Below, one piece after another: positions 4,624-62,131 of a stretch of DNA of 64,000 nt. The translations under genes were made by a program, and so were the position numbers. Source of the DNA: Mobula hypostoma (taxonomy: Eukaryota); contig NC_086108.1 in NCBI RefSeq assembly GCF_963921235.1, positions 14,074,001 through 14,138,000 of the forward strand, in the 5' to 3' direction. Every line of letters starts with the position of its first letter. The first letter of the stretch is position 1. The notes beneath the pieces were generated by a model. The model did not search any database. It had not been told where the DNA came from and worked only from the letters and a program-made list of their open reading frames with translations.

Positions 4624-7600
4624 TTAATGAAAATATTGAATAAAAGATCTCCAGGTCTGTTCAAATTTAGGTGAGGAATCATAAAGATTGCTTCTAATTT
4701 TCTCCAAATTCAAGCATAATATCGTCTGAGAAAACCAAAAAAAGGTAGATGGAGCATTAAGCTCTTTCCAATGTTGTAAGATACATCTTTTCGCCATTAA
4801 AGTAAGAAATGCAATCATTCTACGGGCTGAAGGAGAAAGATTACTGGAAGTTTTAGGTAATCCAAAGATAGCAGTAATAGGGTGAGGAGAGATATCTATA
4901 TTCAATACCTTTGAGATAATATTAAAAATGTCTCTCCAAAAAGTTTCCAGAGTAGGACAAGACCAAAACATATGAGTTAGAGAGGCTATCTGCCCCGGAC
5001 ATCTATCACAAAAAGGATTAATATGAGAATAAAAACGAGCTAATTTATCTTTGGACATATGTGCTCTATGAACAACTTTAAATTGAATTAGGGAATGTTT
5101 AGCACAGATAGAGGAAGTATTGACTAATTGTAAAATCTGCCCCCAGTCATCCACGGAAATGATAGAGCCCAATTCCTGTTCCCAATCTACCCAAATCTTA
5201 TCAAATGGAGCTTTCCTAAGTTTCATAATAATATTATAAATCATAGCCGACGCACCTTTCTGACATGGATTAAGGTTAATTATAGTATCTAAAATATATG
5301 TAGGAGGAAGCATTGGAAAGAAAGAAAGAAAGTATAGTACTTAGGAAATTCCTAACTTGTAGATATCTAAAAAAATGTATTCTTGATAAATTATATTTAT
5401 TAGATAATTGTTCAAAAGACATAAGGGAACCATCTAAAAATAAATCCAAAAACCGTGAAGTACCCTTAGTCTTCCAAATTTGAAAAGCACGATCCGTGAA
5501 AGAGGGAGGAAAAAATATGTTACCTAAAATAGGAATTGCTAGCCCAAATTGGTTAAGATCAAAAAATTTTCTGAATTGAAACCAAATACGTAAGGTATAT
5601 TTAACTATTGGGTTAGAGACCTGTTTGAGGCGTTTCAAATCAAAAGGAAGAGAGGGACCTAAAATACAGCCAAGTGTATAGCCCTGAGCAGATTGTAATT
5701 CCAATACTACCCATTTAGGAATGGATAGTATATCCTGGTCAAGTAACCAAAATTTCGTATGTCGAATATTAATTGCCCAATAATAGAATCTAAAGTTAGG
5801 TAATGCTAAACCTCTATCTCTCTTAGCTTTCTGTAAACGTATTTTACCCAATCTCGGGTTTTTATTTTGCCAAATAAATGAAGAAATTTTTGAGTCAACT
5901 TTATCAAAAAAAGATTTTGGAACAAAAATCGGTAATGCCTGAAATATATATAAAAATTTTGGCAAAAAAAACATCTTAACTGCATTAATACGACCAATCA
6001 AAGTTAAATATAATGGAAACCATTTAGATGAAAGTTGAGTAATATGGTCAATTAAGGGTAAAAAACTAATCTTAAATAAATCTTTGTGTTTACAAGTAAC
6101 TTTAATCCCAAGATATGAAAAATAATTATTAATCAATTTAAACGGAAAGTTGTGATATAAGGGAAGTTGTTTATTAATTGGGAAAAGTTCACTCTTACTA
6201 AGATTTAATTTATAACCTGAAAAAAGACTAAATTGTGCTAATAAATCTAAAACAGCAGGGATGGATTTTTGAGGATTAGAAATATATAAAAGTAAGTCAT
6301 CAGCATAGAGTGATATTTTATGGGACTTTAAGCCCCGAGTTATCCCAGTAATATACGGAGATTCTCGAATGGCAATTGCAAGAGGTTCTAATGCAATATC
6401 AAATAATAAAGGACTAAGAGGACAGCCTTCTCGAGTACCTCGAAAAAGAGGGAAAAAAGGTGAGCTTAAAGAATTAGTACAGACCGAGGCTACAGGAGAA
6501 TGATATAACAATTTGATCCAGGATATAAATTTCGAGCTAAAATTAAACATTTCAAGCACCTTAAATAAGTAAGGCCATTCTACTCTATCAAAAGCTTTCT
6601 CAGCATCTAAAGAGATAACACACTCAGGAACATTTTGTGAGGGGGTATAAACAATATTTAACAGTGTATGTATGTTATAGAAAGAGTAATGACCTTTAAT
6701 AAAACCCGTTTGGTCTTCCGAAATAATAAAAGGAAGTACTTTTTCTAATCTGTTTGCTAATAATTTAGAAAAAATTTTAGAATCAACATTTAATAAAGAT
6801 ATTGGTCTATAAGATGCACATTGAGCAGGATCTTTATCCTTCTTTAATATTAGAGAGATTGAAAGATTCGGGAAGTTTACCCAGTTTTAACGAAGCCTCG
6901 AAAACCCTACAGAACCACGGGATTAATGAAGATGCAAAACATTTATAAAATTCTGCGGTAAGCCCATCAGGGCCAGGAGCTTTCCCCAGGTTCATAGAGG
7001 AAATAACATTCTTAATCTCATCAGTGGTAATGGGAGTATCTAGCATAGAAGACATATCCTGTGAAATCTCAGGGAGTTCTAGGTTATCTAAAAAATCATT
7101 CATATATTTAGAGTCTCGAGAGGACTCTGATTGATATAAGGAAGAATAAAAATCAAAAAAAGTTTGATTAATCCCCGCATGATCAAGTATCAGTCGATCA
7201 TTTTGATTATAAATCTGATTAATTTGAGACTTAGCATAATTAGATTTCAATTGGTTAGCCAACAGTTTGCCAATTTTATCACTGTGTACATAAAATTCAC
7301 TTCTTGTTTTCTTTAATTGGTTTACAATCGACGACGAAAGTAATAAACTGTGTTCCATTTGAAGTTCAGTTCTTTGTTTATATAACTCCTCAGAGGGAGC
7401 TATAACATATTTCTTATCAATTTCCTTAATCTTGTCCACAATTACCAACTCCTCCTGCTTCAGCTTCTTCCTCAAAGCAGCAGAATACGACATAATCTGA
7501 CCACGAATATAAGCTTTAAAAGTATCCCAAAGAATGTTCACAGAAATATCCTCTGTATAGTTGATTGTAAAAAAAAAGATCAATCTGTTCATTCATAAAG

Positions 7601-8387
7601 TTAACAAAATCCGAGTCCTGAAACAACAGCGAATTAAAACGCCATTGTCTATTATTTTGTGTATTGGCCTGAATTTTAATAGAAAGCTTAAGTGGAGCAT
7701 GATCCGAAATGGTTATAGAGTCATAATCACATTTAATCACTGAAGAAATAAGACGAGAGTCAATAAAGTAATAGTCAATTCTTGAATAGGAATGGTGAAC
7801 ATGTGAAAAAAAAGAAAAATCTTTTTCCTGAGGATGCAAAAAACGCCAAATGTCCGTTGACCCAGAATCAGAGAGGAATGAATTAATCAAAGTTGCAGAT
7901 TTATTAGGTAAGGTCCGTAGAGGAGCCAAACGGTCCAAAGCTGGAGATAAACAGGTATTAAAATCTCCGCCCCAGATCAATGAAAACTCATTCAAATTCG
8001 GGAACTGATTGAATAATGATTTATAAAATTCCGGACAATCCATATTGGGAGCATAAACATTAACCAAAACTACCTTTTTATTAAATAGTAAACCACTAAC
8101 CAGTAGAAACCTACCATTGGATCAGAGATAATATCATGTTGTATAAAAGTAACTGAGGAGTCTATAAAAATAGAGACGCCTCGAATCTTAGCATTAGAGT
8201 TCGAATGAAACTGTTGACCCTTCCAGAATTTAAAAAAACATAGTCTGTCCCCCCTCCACACATGGGTCCCTTGTAAAAATAGAATTTGTGCTTTAAGTCT
8301 CCGGGACACTTTAAAAATTTTTTTCCTTTTAATAGGATGGTTAAGACCATTAGTATTCCAGGAGACAAAATTAATAATAGACTCCAT
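4624..8387 (-). pseudogene. L1 ORF2 (APE-RT-CCHC), frameshifted or interrupted by stops
   Basis: MESIINFVSWNTNGLNHPIKR, NVYAPN, GGDFN, SDHAP, KAPGPDG, GCPLSPLLF, YADDLL and CDRC...HMFWSC are spread over several ORFs. Confidence 0.9.
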
Positions 8388-9101
8388 AAACCCTAAAGTC
8401 AACTCGCAAAAAGGAGGATTGATGATAGGCTCGACCCACGAACCCGGAAAGGGAACAGAACAAGCAAGAGATACCGGGAAGGAGAACGCAACCAATACTT
8501 CAATAGTGTAAATAGCCCAAGAAGAAAAAAACTAAAATGTGAAGCCCCTCCCACCACCACCCCACCCCATGACCCCAAGGCTAGATCTAAAACAGACTAG
8601 TCGGAAAGAAGCAAGCACTAAAACTACCCCCATGACTTCCGATAGACGCTCACTTAAAAAAAAGTGTAAATATAAAAAAAGATCAGCAAATTATAAAACA
8701 GTAAAAGAATAAAAAAAGTAAATCAATTAAAACAAACACTTACTATAACAGAGAAAAAGCCAGAAAATATTTTTTAAAAACCGCAACAAACCCCAGACCC
8801 TATGAATAAACAAAAAAAAATGAAATTATTAACATAAACTAGTTATAAAAATCTACAAAAAAAGTAAATTTAAAAAAAAACTACAAAATTTAAGGCCTCA
8901 AAGGAAATACGTAGAATGACGCTGAGGACATACCCACCCAGAATCCCCTGGGAAAAAGAAAGGGATGACGCAGATAGAAAGAAAGTTTAGCAACCATATT
9001 AATGAATCAAAAATAAACTTTTCTGCCCATATAAGGCAAAAAAAAATTAAGGCCGGCAGATTCACAACCTCCGATCAAACGGAGATAGTTAAAAATTACA
9101 A

Positions 9102-9926
9102 TTAAGATGTCGAAGGTGAAAATTGATCCAGATAACTCTGGGCATCCGATGGAGATTCAAAAAAACGGAGGGCTCCATCCAACGTACGAATCCTTAGACG
9201 TGCCGGGTAAAGCAGCGCTGGTTTTAAATCCATCTTGTAGAGTTCCGACATCACAGATCTATAACGAACCCGTTGATCCCGAATTGGTTTACTGAAATCC
9301 TCCAAGAATCGGAAATTAAGATCCGAAAAATCAATGTAACCTTTAGATCGAATGAATCGAAACAGTTTCTCCTTGTCTTGAAAGTAATGAAAACGTAAGA
9401 TGACATGTCGAGGTTTATCTGACTTAGACGAGTATGATGGAACTCTGTGAACACGATCCAATAACGGTGGTTGGTCAGGAAATACAGTAGGAAATGCATC
9501 TTTTAAAAGTTGAGAAAAAAACTTCATAGGGTTGTCAGATTCCACAGCTTCACACACACCAATCATTCGAAAATTCTGCCGTCGCATTCTGGATTCTAAG
9601 TCAGAGTTTTTAAAGGTCAGAAAGTCAAGTTTTTTCTTCATTATAGTAATTGGTTCTTCAATTTTCTCCATCTTGAGTTCATTTTGTTGCGTGGATTTTT
9701 GAAGATTAGATATAGCCGACTGATGTTCCGTAATAGATAATTGTATTTTATCGATTGAATCGGCAATTTTCTGGAAATTAGTTGAAATTTCTGAATGAAT
9801 CAGTTCCGTAATAGAGGTTGAAATTTCCCTTTGAATTAGATCTGATATAGCTTTCAAAGTCACCGGTGGTCCTCCCATAGCAGACCTTAAAAACATCCGA
9901 TTATCGAAGAGCCCAGTTTGTTTCAA
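9102..9926 (-). CDS. L1 ORF1 (coiled coil + RRM); start uncertain
   Basis: Coiled-coil region followed by DLESRMRRQNFRMIGV, LDRVHRV, PRHVILRF, LLYPARLRI. Confidence 0.8.
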   Translation of the reverse strand: MKQTGLFDNRMFLRSAMGGPPVTLKAISDLIQREISTSITELIHSEISTNFQKIADSIDKIQLSITEHQSAISNLQKSTQQNELKMEKIEEPITIMKKKLDFLTFKNSDLESRMRRQNFRMIGVCEAVESDNPMKFFSQLLKDAFPTVFPDQPPLLDRVHRVPSYSSKSDKPRHVILRFHYFQDKEKLFRFIRSKGYIDFSDLNFRFLEDFSKPIRDQRVRYRSVMSELYKMDLKPALLYPARLRIRTLDGALRFFESPSDAQSYLDQFSPSTS

Positions 9927-10519
9927 AGTATTGTGAAAGTCGATGCCTTAATGGTTAGTTAAAATATAGCTGATCATAAGAAAAAAAACTCAGAGGTAAT
10001 GGAGCGAGTCAAGAACACGACTTCACTCCATGAGCTCTACCGGAAGTCCCCAAAAGTGAAATTTTGAGAGTACAAAGCATGTATGTGCCTGTCAGAATAA
10101 AGACAACAGGTTTAGGGAACCTTTGTCTTTGAGAAATATTGAGGCCCTGGTGAAGAGGGATAAAGGAAGTGCATGGCAGGTAGAAACAAATGAGTTGCTG
10201 ATGGAGTATAAGAAATGCAAGAGAACACTCAGGAGGGCATGAATTTGCGCTTGCAAAAATGTGATGGAGAATCCTCAGGTGTTTTACAGATATGTTAAGA
10301 AGGACTGCAAGGGACAAACTTGGTCCTCTGGAAGATTAGAAGGGCAGTTTAGCCTTCCAGTCATGCCTTGCATCCTTATTTATCTGGTTTACTTTTGGGA
10401 CTAGCGAAGTTCTACATTTCACTGAAACTTCTGTTTTCTCTCCCCCCCCACCCCAAACTAAACATCTCCTGTGTGGTTCTACCTCTGCGGGTGAGGCTGA
10501 AACAGCATTAGTTCAAAAC

Positions 10520-22020: not shown

Positions 22021-22574
22021 ATCTACCCAACCCCCCCCCTCCCCCAACCACATTTTCTCTGTAGCTTTTACACTTTATTCTGTATTGTTATTGTTTTATC
22101 TTCTAACTCAATGCACTGTGTCATGATCTGATCTGTATAAGCTTTCTGTTGTATCTTGGTACACGTGACAATTATAAATCAACGCCCCCTGCTCCGTAAC
22201 ATTTCTAACAACATTAAATGTGACTAATACAAGTTTGGCTGTTGGGTATTTACATCATTTAAAAATTGGAAATGAGAATCATTTGTGGTTGTTGGGAATT
22301 AAATGTTAGTTTTGAGCTATTGGTTATTGGATGTTGAGAAATTAATCTTTGGTGTAAGGTCCTGGATATTGGGAACTGGAAGTTGGGGGTTGGTAACTGA
22401 ATGCTAGGATTTGGAGTTTGGGAATTGGGTGTTGGAGATTGGATGTTGGGTGGGAGTTGAGCGCCGGGAGCTAGAATGAGTATGTAATGGGGAAAACTAG
22501 CCTTGGTGTTGAAGGTAGTAACTACATGCCCTGTTTAGAACTCTGACCTGTCTCTTACTCTGTATCTCCCAAAG

Positions 22575-22993
22575 GCACCAGAGATGTTTGCCGTTGCCTC
22601 GGAGAACTTGTCTCCCACCATGGACCAGTCGTTTGAAGCCGTGATAGAGGCCGACCCTCAGGACAATCTGCTGCCGAGTTGGAGGATGGTGTCCAGGCGA
22701 CCTTGCTCCATGATGATGGCGCACTGCAGGCTAGACAGCTCCCTGGGCAGCCCAAGCCCCAGCCCTGGCACTATGGCCCGTGACACCAGTTCCTGTTTCA
22801 GCTTTGATGGCAGCAGTTGGTCTAGTGTACCGGTGTGGGGGCTCAGCCCACTGCCTCTCGACCAGGCTGCTTTCCTCCTCAGTCCCCGCGTCATGCAGAG
22901 GAGGGGAGGCTTGGTGGAACAGCGAGACATCATCAGGGCGCACGAGGCGCACAAGCTGCAGAGCACGCCACAGGCTCGTCGCAGGGAGTGGGA
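22575..22993 (+). CDS. Putative upstream coding exon of the same calcium channel gene (N-terminal extension)
   Basis: Unique sequence open for 139 codons. CTGAC branch-like site, pyrimidine tract and AAG acceptor at 22574; GA|GTAAGT donor at 22994. The phase-2 end is completed by G61811, giving ...ARRREW-E-MARFGE in frame. Confidence 0.72.
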
Positions 22994-23114
22994 GTAAGTT
23001 TGTCTCCCAGTGGGACTGGGAGTGAGTGTTCCCAGAGGTGGGAGTGAGTGAGTCGGAGGGTGGGAGTGTGTATGTCCAGCGCTGGGTATGGGATGGAGGC
23101 AACTTGGATGGACG

Positions 23115-49400: not shown

Positions 49401-52209
49401 TCTGCAGATGCTGGGATCAAAGCAACACTCACAACACGCTGGAGGAACGCAGCATGTTGTGTGTTGCAGATAAATAGTTAGTTACTTGATGGTTATCTTT
49501 TTAAAATTTTTTTTTTCGGCAGGATTATTGGGATCAAAGAACAATGTGTCGGAGAAAATCAGGAGGTCAGGATCAGTGGAGTGAAGCTCCTGGGATATCG
49601 TGGACATTCTTGTTGCCCAGTTCCTGTGTTGTAATAGTCTGCATTTGGGCTGACTACATCTGATTTGTAGCAGAGAAACAGACACTTTAACCCACCAGAT
49701 CCATGCCAGCATTTGTGCTGCTCCTCATCATTTAACCCCTTTCAATACATCTGAATATTCCTCTTTCCCGTACATTTAAACAACACTTGTTTAAGGATGG
49801 AATACACTGAATTCGTCAGGTTCTGTTCTATGCTTTATTTTCCTCCAAGTGAGCCCCTGAATTTCTATGCTTTTGGTGTACTCAGCTGCAGAGAGTACAA
49901 ATTGAATCTGTTTTTCTCACTTGCTCCATTTGCATTAATTTAGTTCAATAATGAATTTTCATATTTATGAGTAGATGTTTATTTAAAGAAAAATATCATA
50001 TTTTAATTGTGCCCAGGCTGCAAGGTAAAAGCACATTCCTATAAACACTCTCATTAACATCAAAATGTGTTCTGTTCTGATGACTCTGTGATTGCCCCCA
50101 GCTGAACGCATTATCAAATTGGGTTAGGGGTGGGCAAGTCAGCCAGGGAACCTGTTCTTGATCAAAGTCTTGTGCTGGAGAGTGCACATGATGCTGTGCA
50201 TGGAGAGGGCTGGTGTAGCTGATATGCTTTACTGCAGACCTTTACTTCTGTCTGTAGACCTTAGTTGAATGACCTAGAAATTCCAAAGTGCATACAAATG
50301 TATGCAAATCTGTTGCTGTAAAGGGACATGGGCCAGTTGTTGGTGTGGTCAGATGGAATTGGATGTGTTACATTGGAAGATGTAAATGTTGTGATGCCTT
50401 GGCTTTAACTACCCAAATGACCATGTGTTATTTTACTCATCATCTGAATATAAAGGCACAAATTACAGCAGAGGTGCTGTTGTAATTGAGAGAATGTTAA
50501 TGATGTACTTCAGCAAACCTTAGTGAGAAAGGGGCTTTCCTTCATCCCTTTCTCAACCTAATTCTATAGAATGTATCTTGCTCTTGGTCTTTTCTCCTTA
50601 TTGATCTATCTTAGCCAACCTCCATTTTGTCGCCTGTCCTACATCTCACCCCTTTCTCCCAGCTCTACTTTTCAAAATGTAAATTCCCCAGTTCTGTGGA
50701 AGTGTTGACCAATGACCCATAATGTTGACCAATGTTTCTTTCCACAGATGTTGCTTGACTGGCTGAGTTTTTCCAGCATTTTTATTCTTAGAAATATTTT
50801 TTTATTTAGTAAGCTTTATCCGGTGTGGTTGGATGGGTGACACTAGTTTTAAATAACTTGTTGAAAGATATCTTAGCAACACACACAAAATGCTGCAGGA
50901 ACTCAGCAAGCCAGGAAACATCTATGGAAAAGAGTAAACAGTTGATGCTTTGGGCTGAGACCCTTTATCAGGACTTTTGTTTGTATTGCTTGGTCTTCAA
51001 GCATCTGCAGAGTTTTCTCTTGTTTGTGATTGGAAGGTATCTTACTACGTTCTAGTCTCACCTACTTTGGTAGAACTAATGTTCTCTATTTTTAACCAGA
51101 TAGGTGAAACTTCTTCAGTATTATTTCATCCACGTTGGTGTGATGGATATCACCAAGTGTTATATAATGTTTTGAGTCTAATTTTAATTTTACCCACCTT
51201 GGTGGGACAGAACTTATCTATCTTTATTTAGTTTGTAAAACTGATCTTACTAAATTTTGTCTGGTTTATTGGACAGTCATTTAATCATTTGTTGTCCTGT
51301 TGAATGGATCTGCTTGTTTTATTCCTTTATTGTAAATTATTTTACAAGATTCTCTTGTCAGAGATGCAGCCTGACCTGCCCCCCACATGCCAACTCTACT
51401 GTTTCAAACGAGGGTTGGAAGTTTATGACAAACTGTTTGCAGTCTCCATTTCCAACTTGCTCAGCAGTCTGGGGAGCATTCCATCTACAGCAGTTGATTT
51501 GCTCACCTTAAGAGTTGCCTTTCCAACATCACCTCTAATTCATTATCTCCGTCCACGAGACCTTTGCAGAATCTTCCTTGATGAAGACTGTTTAAAAAGT
51601 ACTCAGTTGGCATTCCAATACTGCTCACTATTTCAATTCAAGTCTTTTGGAATCTCTGCTGTTCTCATGCCACAGAGGTTTCCTATATATCTTACTAGTT
51701 ACAATAGACAGATTCTCCCATAGTTGTTATTGTCTTCTGTCATTGTCATCTCTCCTTTCAGATGACAATTAGTTTTGTCTCACTTGAATTATCATCTGAC
51801 ATGTGCCACACACCATTTTTTATGTCATTTCTATGTCCTTTGTCATCCACAAATTGTGGCTTGCTTCCCCTTTAGGCATGTACCCAGTCTGTACCTGTTA
51901 AGTCACCAGTAGAAATAGCACTGTGGCTCCATTTTACCCACACCGGATCTTCGTGAGTCACAGAGCACTACAGCACAGAATCAGACCCTTTGACACATCT
52001 AGTCCATGCTGACCCAGTTTTCCACTTCGTCCTATCCGCACTCAGACCATAGCCTCCCATACCTCTGTCAAGCAAGAGTCTCTTGGGTAGGCACAACAAT
52101 GTACAAAGAACGAAGAGATGTGGACCATGACCAGGTGATTGAGTATCATTAACTCAAATAGTTTCACACCAATATCATGGGCCAAAAGACTTTTCCTGTG
52201 CTGCATTAT

Positions 52210-59869: not shown

Positions 59870-60800
59870 TAGTCAGCGTGAATTTAACAGGATTAGGACG
59901 ATAGAAGTGCGGCTGTTCCCGATGTGTGTGTGTGATCGTGTAAAAGAGATGGATGAGTATGAATCATCTTCGAGGTGTGGATGGGTTCGGATGCAATGGG
60001 AAGGACGGCTATGTGTCAGTATTGGGGGAGGGTGTGGGGAGCTGCAGCGAGCGGATGGGCAAGGTTTGAATGTGGAGCAGCGACGCTTTGAGGGAGCGGG
60101 CTGTGGTGGGCAGTCGCTGCCGTGCCGCACCTTGTCCCACAGGCGGCAGTGTGAGGCTGTCCGGGGGCGCCAGGGCGCTGGCTGCGACCTCGGCGGATCC
60201 ACGGTCACCCGGCAAACGGAGAGCCCGCGCACATCAGCGCCCGGCCGGTCGCAGGTTCGATCCTTCGTGGGGGCGCACAGTAAGGAACATTTCTCGACAT
60301 CGTGCTTTGTTTTGTATTGCCTTTGGATGAATGAATCGTGTGGATGGGTTCGGATGTGTTTTACACTGCAGAGAGACAAAAAACCTACCCGCTGTAGTCA
60401 ACGGAGGGTCGTCCTGATTTGGAACGAGGGAGGAAAGGACGATGGAGTGGGGGAGGAGGGAGAAGGAGAGGGCAGAGTGAGTGAGTGAGTGAGGGAGGGA
60501 GGCAGGGGGGGCCGGGGTTTAGAGTCCAGCTGGGCGCAGGTCGGAGGTCATCCCCAGTTGTGGCGAGCGTGACCCCGAGGCGGTGGCGGCGGCGACGAGC
60601 GCCCTCCCTCCATCACTTTCTCCTCTCCATCCGTCCGCCGGTAGTGAATGAAGCACTGGGCCAGCGAGAGGGAGCCCGGCAGTCATTGTCCAGCCTCGCC
60701 GTCTGTCTGCGGACGAGAGTGAGTGCGGGGGGCGAGGGAGGGACAGCGGATCAACATCCCCACAACCCTCGCCCCCCCGTCCCTTACTCTCTATCGCGCT
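59870..60800 (+). promoter_or_regulatory. CpG island / probable promoter with candidate non-coding first exon(s)
   Basis: Locally GC- and CpG-rich against a CpG-depleted background. Donor-like sites CA|GTAAGG (60280) and GA|GTGAGT (60719). Lies 1-2 kb upstream of the acceptor at 61810. Confidence 0.65.
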
Positions 60801-61099
60801 CCATTCTTCCCTCACATCAGCTCCCCCTCTCCGTTCCTCCATCTCCAGCCTCATTCGTCCTTCTCTTCTCTGTTCGTTTACTTTTCCCTCTTGAACCAAC
60901 CCTCATCTCTCACATATCCCTCTTATCTCCGTCACCCATCCCCTTACCCAAACCCCCTTACCCAACCCCCTCACCCAAATCCCTTACTCCCCTCAAATTC
61001 CCCTTCTCCTTTTCTCAAACCTCACACTTCCCCCTTCTTTCCTTGCCACTTTTACCCGTTGCCTATCATTGCCCATATTCCTCACCCTTTTCCCCATAA

Positions 61100-61660: not shown

Positions 61661-61810
61661 CCATCCATATCCTAATCCCCCCTCTCTGCATCTGTCACCC
61701 TTCTGATTCCTCAGCCATCCTATTCCCCTCTCCTTCCCTCTTGCCACTTGCCCACCTTCCTACCTCCCTGAACTGCTCAGCCATCTCAGCTGCCTGCTCT
61801 CTCTCCACAG

Positions 61811-62131
61811 GATGGCTCGGTTTGGGGAAGCAGTGAGCGGTTTGTCTGCCGATGCCAGCCCGGAGCAGGGAAAGAGCCGACACCAGGTGCCGGTGAGTGG
61901 GGAAACGGCCGCGGCGGCAGCCGCAGCAGGAGCAGCAGCAGCAGTGGCAGCAGCAGCGGCGGCACAGGGCTCGGCTGGTTTCAAGCAGAGCCGGGCACAG
62001 CGGGCACGCACCATGGCTCTCTACAACCCCATCCCTGTTCGACACAACTGCTTGACCGCGAACAGATCCCTCTTCTTGTTCGGAGAGGATAACATCATCA
62101 GGAAGTCAGCCAGAAGAGTCATCGAATGGCC
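61811..62131 (+). CDS. CACNA1E: Voltage-gated calcium channel Cav2 alpha-1 subunit (CACNA1E/doe-1-like): exon carrying the canonical start codon (ATG 61812)
   Basis: Translates MARFGEAV...[50 protein letters not shown], the Cav2 N-terminus up to IS1. MARFGEAV is the Cav2.3-type start. Pyrimidine tract + CAG acceptor ends at 61810; U12 donor ATATCCTT starts at 62132. Confidence 0.92.

Follow-up and report, generated by a model that had tools for sequence, protein, structure and literature searches.

The long N-terminus of the calcium channel Cav1.2 arises from an alternative promoter. Passages of PMC4042065 describe the NSCaTE element of Cav1.2 and Cav1.3. The ray locus investigated here is alike in outline, in that promoter choice would add a regulatory N-terminal segment to a channel, although it belongs to a different subfamily and no sequence relation was seen (the extension matches no PDB chain by sequence). 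For Cav2.3 the splice variants a–e/f are known, which stem from the same gene and diversify its cytoplasmic parts as a long N-terminal form would. In passages of PMC7351833 and PMC6986797 these variants concern insertions at exon 19 and exon 45, a C-terminal insertion and one unconfirmed shorter N-terminus, whereas a longer N-terminus is absent from the variants listed there. The N-terminal region of Cav2 channels is required for G-protein modulation according to a passage of PMC5043047. The closest counterparts are long CACNA1E isoforms predicted by RefSeq for mouse, rat, chicken and lizards, which contain the orthologous exon with the same motif and the same join to the usual start, and whose extension mostly measures 129–157 aa. 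They are automated models without a printed description; the ray differs from them by a more diverged linker (a long branch) and in that the join was not seen in its own RNA. Two human CACNA1A matches, K7EIF8 (89 aa) and KAI2589172.1 (81 aa), also resemble the ray exon, since their A-type form of the motif extends to the same splice point. There it is spliced to non-channel tails, a situation resembling the ray join at 49523 described below. We found no description of the exon in the literature searched, which was mostly open-access with few supplements and was also queried with the motif strings, nor in passages including those of PMC10676324 and PMC3649712. A proteomic survey of translated 5' regions (PMC11317171, main text and one supplement) likewise contained no match for CACNA1A, CACNA1B or CACNA1E.

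We analyzed a stretch of 64,000 nt from the genome of Mobula hypostoma, hereafter the window. An initial annotation had pointed out a stop-free exon of 419 nt on the plus strand at 22575–22993, and its acceptor, donor and splice phase all match the sequence. The acceptor consists of a pyrimidine tract followed by AAG with the last base at 22574, the donor GTAAGT starts at 22994, and frame 1 runs without a stop through 139 codons plus GA, i.e. the exon is entered in phase 0 and left in phase 2. The TAA terminating the genomic ORF (22539–22997) falls within the donor, as had been noted, and the reported CpG retention was confirmed with an observed/expected ratio of 0.50 in the exon versus 0.29 in the window. 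The exon was also described as unique, which does not hold, as a paralogous exon is present elsewhere in the genome (contig C81, see below). The usual start codon lies in the context CAG/G ATG, where the acceptor ends at 61810, 1 nt before the ATG, and the G is base 61811. Joining 22993 to 61811 spans an intron of 38,817 nt, and GA plus G keeps the reading frame. The flanks of the exon are rich in repeats. Elsewhere, the window contains a near-complete, frameshifted LINE-type retrotransposon on the minus strand (4624–9947) with pieces that are presumably ORF1-like and ORF2-like, labels we gave by recognition, as well as many smaller LINE fragments.

A dN/dS comparison, which the initial annotation had proposed, was made with contigs of four related data sets. 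These yielded at least 28 distinct differences within the exon (place-and-letter pairs among the differences listed, contig ends excluded), of which 19 are synonymous and 21 are located at third codon positions. The synonymous share expected by chance is 22–27% (p about 1e-5 to 3e-7), which gives an omega of about 0.14–0.18. In the two other frames 4 and 1 of the 28 differences are synonymous. Indels were not found inside the exon among the listed differences, while data set X4 shows several in the flanks. The distribution of the differences points to an uneven constraint: 16 of 18 are synonymous in residues 61–139, and 3 of 10 in residues 4–60, which appear near neutral among these relatives. 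The substitution pattern indicates that the exon is under purifying selection in the proposed frame.

We also searched for use of the splice sites in RNA. Data sets X1–X3 are transcript-like, from which we infer their RNA nature, and weight was placed solely on joins at GT-AG sites; contigs of this kind demonstrate the presence of a junction but cannot demonstrate its absence. In all three runs contigs span the exon and leave the adjacent unique intron uncovered. One X2 contig enters at the acceptor (22575) from single-mapping sequence 165,756 nt upstream that is followed by a GT donor. This distal upstream exon (contig C50, ending at 13930818; L009 1478–1532) is open over 39 codons in the genome studied, none of them an in-frame Met, and the contig letters of the X2 relative contain an in-frame stop seven codons ahead of the joint. 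The upstream exon is therefore likely untranslated and the start is likely Met 22584. The same contig carries about 100 upstream letters as against 55 nt behind the nearest acceptor, so that either the distal upstream exon is longer or a further exon lies upstream. The initial annotation had placed the start either at Met 22584 or in an exon further upstream; the first option agrees with these results and the second lacks an in-frame Met in the exon found. Met 22584 (22584–22586, plus strand) is the fourth residue of the exon and its column is at least 90% conserved in an alignment of 22 homologues. Another candidate on the same strand, Met 22620, has the stronger Kozak context. We consider Met 22584 the most likely start of the long form, which results in an extension of 137 aa.

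At the other end of the exon one X1 contig (depth 3.2) exits at the donor (22993) and continues at 49523, a site in single-copy DNA with a good acceptor in front. The alternative downstream exon on the plus strand was assigned to 49523–49848, its start being taken from this one RNA contig and its end from the sole GT(A/G)AG donor within 49523–50100. It has an in-frame stop at 49632, and if the contig is colinear the join ends after 36 codons and gives a product of 173 aa. Since neither AATAAA nor ATTAAA occurs in 49523–51500 the exon may be internal. The contig extends 509 letters beyond the joint (window 49523–50032). Among the contigs of this animal's RNA covering the exon the junction from 22993 to 61811 was not seen and the donor is joined solely to 49523. 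A break between two X1 contigs was considered as a branch to the ATG exon and rejected, as its position does not fit such a branch. Of the splicing predicted by the initial annotation, the use of both splice sites was thus found in RNA and the particular join to 61811 was not. With its open frame, both splice sites used and selection acting on its codons, 22575–22993 is a genuine spliced coding exon.

To identify the gene we examined the usual first coding exon (61811–62131, plus strand). It matches PDB chains of Cav2.1, Cav2.3 and Cav2.2 with E values of 1e-21 to 1e-22, and the scores of 84.2, 83.2 and 79.2 bits do not separate the three Cav2 types. We call the gene CACNA1E-like because FGEDNI is common to this exon and Cav2.3, because two other genome loci match Cav2.1 (C81) and Cav2.2 (C67) best, and because the extension clusters with CACNA1E-annotated proteins at 100/99. 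In a tree of extensions built from 36 chosen rows, in which the row of the window is a long branch, E-type and A-type are split at 100/99 and each ray exon stands beside its own gene; the C81 exon pairs with an electric-ray protein as its sister (99/92). A mouse II-III loop query gave no match in the genome. An alanine-rich run in the usual N-terminus (window 61905–61975) is far longer than in the mouse protein.

On C81 the paralogous exon precedes the CACNA1A-like start by 65,358 nt; its last 33 residues show 67% identity to those of the window exon, and its donor context is the same. When the 200 kb preceding the CACNA1B-like gene were searched by tblastn with both peptides, the best E value was 0.25 and the exon was not found; two genome-wide searches returned the two exons and no more. 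The exon appears to be lost or unrecognisable at CACNA1B, and it is older than the duplication that gave rise to CACNA1A and CACNA1E. The three Cav2 genes share the layout AG/N-ATG, with the acceptor 1 nt ahead of the ATG, and a rat guide target printed in PMC9333357 shows it as well.

Exon 1 is followed in all three Cav2 genes by a ATATCCTT donor (window 62132, L004 and L005), which we take to be U12-type. A passage in PMC12149502 agrees with this type. Many database models read through the ATATCCTT donor and appear as 'uncharacterized' proteins in their own right, 230–250 aa long, and short joined models that end just past exon 1 fit such a read-through. In addition, the A-type exon follows an Asterix-like (PF03669) N-terminus in three teleost models (P0093, P0095 and P0195); this fusion is probably an artefact of gene prediction that marks the neighbouring gene.

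A profile of the two ray peptides matched 161 proteins among 454 candidates, and a second protein library contributed 55 matches. The taxon names, taken from the 120 matches listed, comprise sharks, lungfish, gar, sturgeon, teleosts, salamander, lizard, bird and mammals; among the matches listed, many of which are unnamed, no named one lies outside the jawed vertebrates. The initial annotation had made its reading depend on frame-preserving conservation in vertebrates, and such conservation is found from sharks to mammals. It had also suspected a conserved, possibly helical motif in the C-terminal 35 or so residues. We found that the last 31 residues (22899–22993, plus strand) are nearly invariant in the column profile of 183 homologues from sharks to mammals, with helices predicted for them. 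In 66 aligned short homologues all 13 invariant columns are within these 31 residues, and conservation extends up to the final codon ahead of the donor. A weaker second motif, S-(Y/F)-D, is located in the linker (window 22740–22790) and is common to E- and A-type homologues; it is kept in the ray CACNA1A-like exon and in sharks and lost in the ray CACNA1E-like exon. Pfam returned no family at cut-off for 10 proteins, Foldseek with the low-confidence model gave no match and is uninformative, and the best score in the ESM Atlas was 0.76, which has the value of a lead.

We determined where the homologues continue beyond the motif. Among longer proteins (521–2000 aa) a mammalian query gave 27 matches out of 47 candidates. 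In 24 of these the motif passes directly into the usual start, in one it does so with a substitution, and two do not join. The species are mouse, rat, chicken, duck, lizard, frog and cod, and most of the proteins are named CACNA1E isoforms, among them mouse XP_017168356.1 and XP_006529168.1 and rat XP_038946946.1. An earlier search with the ray peptide had returned no longer homologue from 324 candidates, a blank that we ascribe to a failure of sensitivity because the mammalian query later gave 27. The joined homologues come from automated gene prediction; RefSeq predictions generally draw on introns from RNA-seq. Matches of up to 2000 aa included no human channel-fused form, and none of three Logan-derived Cav2.3 proteins, long or N-terminal, in a mouse cluster carried the extension. 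Of 156 short matches, 14 join the usual Cav2 start; three of these 14 are CACNA1A-type, one being a RefSeq model from the electric ray Narcine bancroftii. The motif is the end of the protein in 119, six run on into the intron past the site of the genomic stop, 14 have other tails and three could not be parsed. The guess that the extension already exists in predicted gene models was therefore right, and the proposed long N-terminal isoform is supported by the join in models of other vertebrates, although this animal's RNA did not display it. In our judgment the exon is probably spliced in frame to the usual first coding exon of the CACNA1E-like gene, so that Cav2.3 would gain a cytoplasmic N-terminus of 137 residues.

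Three other explanations were weighed against this assignment. Short transcripts could encode a free microprotein of 80–175 residues whose motif acts in trans, the channel fusion being minor or merely predicted. The 173-aa product of the sole donor junction seen (if colinear), the non-channel nature of both human CACNA1A matches and the 119 short proteins ending at the motif agree with such a product. However, those 119 ends are also expected from genomic read-through of a phase-2 GT(A/G)AG donor, and searches for short proteins favor such pieces. Behind the motif, the tails of different species show no relationship, all three paralogues and rat retain the acceptor directly preceding the ATG by 1 nt, and 24 of the 27 long matches are channel fusions, so that we regard a microprotein as the main product as unlikely. 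Arrest peptides have their invariance concentrated at the C-terminal end, and the clustering of invariant residues at the end of the exon is reminiscent of them. The exon could accordingly be a conserved-peptide upstream ORF or poison module. Channel output would then be throttled by translating the exon or by splicing it to the stop-bearing exon at 49523, and the peptide would owe its conservation to ribosome stalling instead of to a role within the channel. That this stop-bearing exon is used in RNA and may be internal, given the missing AATAAA and ATTAAA, speaks for such a module, but no conserved stop follows the motif (the six short matches running on lack the genomic one) and the in-frame join has persisted in many species and in a second paralogue. 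We rate the upstream ORF as still less probable than the microprotein. Both readings would account for the join at 49523 and for the short human proteins. Both explain poorly why conservation reaches the last codon of a phase-2 donor, why a stop behind it has not been conserved and why two paralogues retain the join; both are compatible with a long isoform and can coexist with it. The lack of a Pfam family and the repeat-rich flanks might suggest that the ORF arose by chance within transposon-derived DNA or that the exon belongs to an unrelated gene. This reading is refuted by selection, splicing, the 161 homologues and a paralogue in the corresponding position at a second Cav2 gene, and we give it almost no weight.

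For the in-frame Cav2.3 extension we propose the following scheme. Transcription would start at a distal promoter, over 165 kb upstream, that supplies non-coding exons, and translation would begin at Met 22584. The following 100 or so residues would form a disordered, fast-evolving linker and the last 31 a docking module composed of an extended RRGGL, a helix, an STP turn and a second helix that continues into the usual start. Promoter choice would switch the channel between a short and a long N-terminal form, and the docking module would be positioned directly before the Cav2 N-terminal region for G-protein modulation. The likely proximal promoter is a CpG island at 60001–61000 (plus strand), as suggested by a GC content of 0.61–0.62 and a CpG observed/expected ratio of 0.73–0.90. 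A candidate proximal first exon in this island ends at 60718 with the donor GTGAGT at 60719. The stretch 60648–60718 (plus strand) has an ATG at 60648, and its phase-2 donor at 60719 would permit an in-frame join to 61811 with about 24 extra residues.

We also assessed the predicted structure with an AlphaFold2 model of a bird protein comprising the extension and exon 1 (81 sequences, mean pLDDT 54.7). The model is mostly coil with few helices. The motif forms a confident helix (block pLDDT 88). After an interruption of three residues at STP, a second helix (block pLDDT only 64–67) is predicted to span the exon junction into the usual first residues. In front of the first helix the RRGGL site (22899–22913, plus strand) fits the PKA pseudosubstrate consensus R-R-x-(A/G)-hydrophobic, as given in passages of PMC5059767 and of a preprint on Smoothened (10.1101/2021.07.05.451193), in all 183 homologues, a pattern that was spotted post hoc and that 2.6% of motif shuffles also fit. 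Arg occupies P-3 and P-2 in 183 of 183 sequences, the P-site is Gly in 180 and Ala in three and never Ser or Thr, and P+1 is L, V, I, M or W throughout. PKI, RI subunits, Smoothened and ARHGAP36 share these features with the motif, namely two Arg at P-3/P-2, Gly or Ala at the P-site and a hydrophobic P+1. PKI and Smoothened have a helix before the site, whereas the Cav2 motif instead has two predicted helices after it; a helix N-terminal to the RRGG site was not predicted (coil of low confidence). The residues upstream of the site, where a pseudosubstrate inhibitor would be expected to carry a helix and an aromatic residue, differ between E- and A-types, and the site accounts for only five of the 31 conserved residues. 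We do not assign the motif to the PKA pseudosubstrate inhibitor family. As the most likely single partner of the motif we tentatively suggest a basophilic kinase, either the PKA catalytic subunit or one related to it, bound via RRG(G/A)-hydrophobic; alternatively, the motif may bind the channel itself or some other conserved partner in the cytoplasm. The full combination, in which a long N-terminal isoform of jawed-vertebrate Cav2.3 and Cav2.1 would predate their duplication, have been lost in Cav2.2, be driven by a distal promoter and use its motif as a pseudosubstrate that tethers or inhibits the PKA catalytic subunit, is somewhat more doubtful still.

In summary, the sequence of the extension is already contained in databases and is therefore not strictly a new part of the gene, yet our searches turned up neither a Pfam family nor a solved structure or paper for it. 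We regard it as an ancient, uncharacterised N-terminal module of the P/Q-type channel Cav2.1 and the R-type channel Cav2.3, both major calcium channels of neurons whose genes are linked to disease. The matched solved Cav2 structures begin at the usual start, one of them after a likely tag. Should neurons commonly use the long form, the cloned channels would be missing a regulatory module, the effects of N-terminal knock-in tags and of exon-1 knockouts may differ between the two forms, and variants in the exon would be missed when interpreted against the short transcript.
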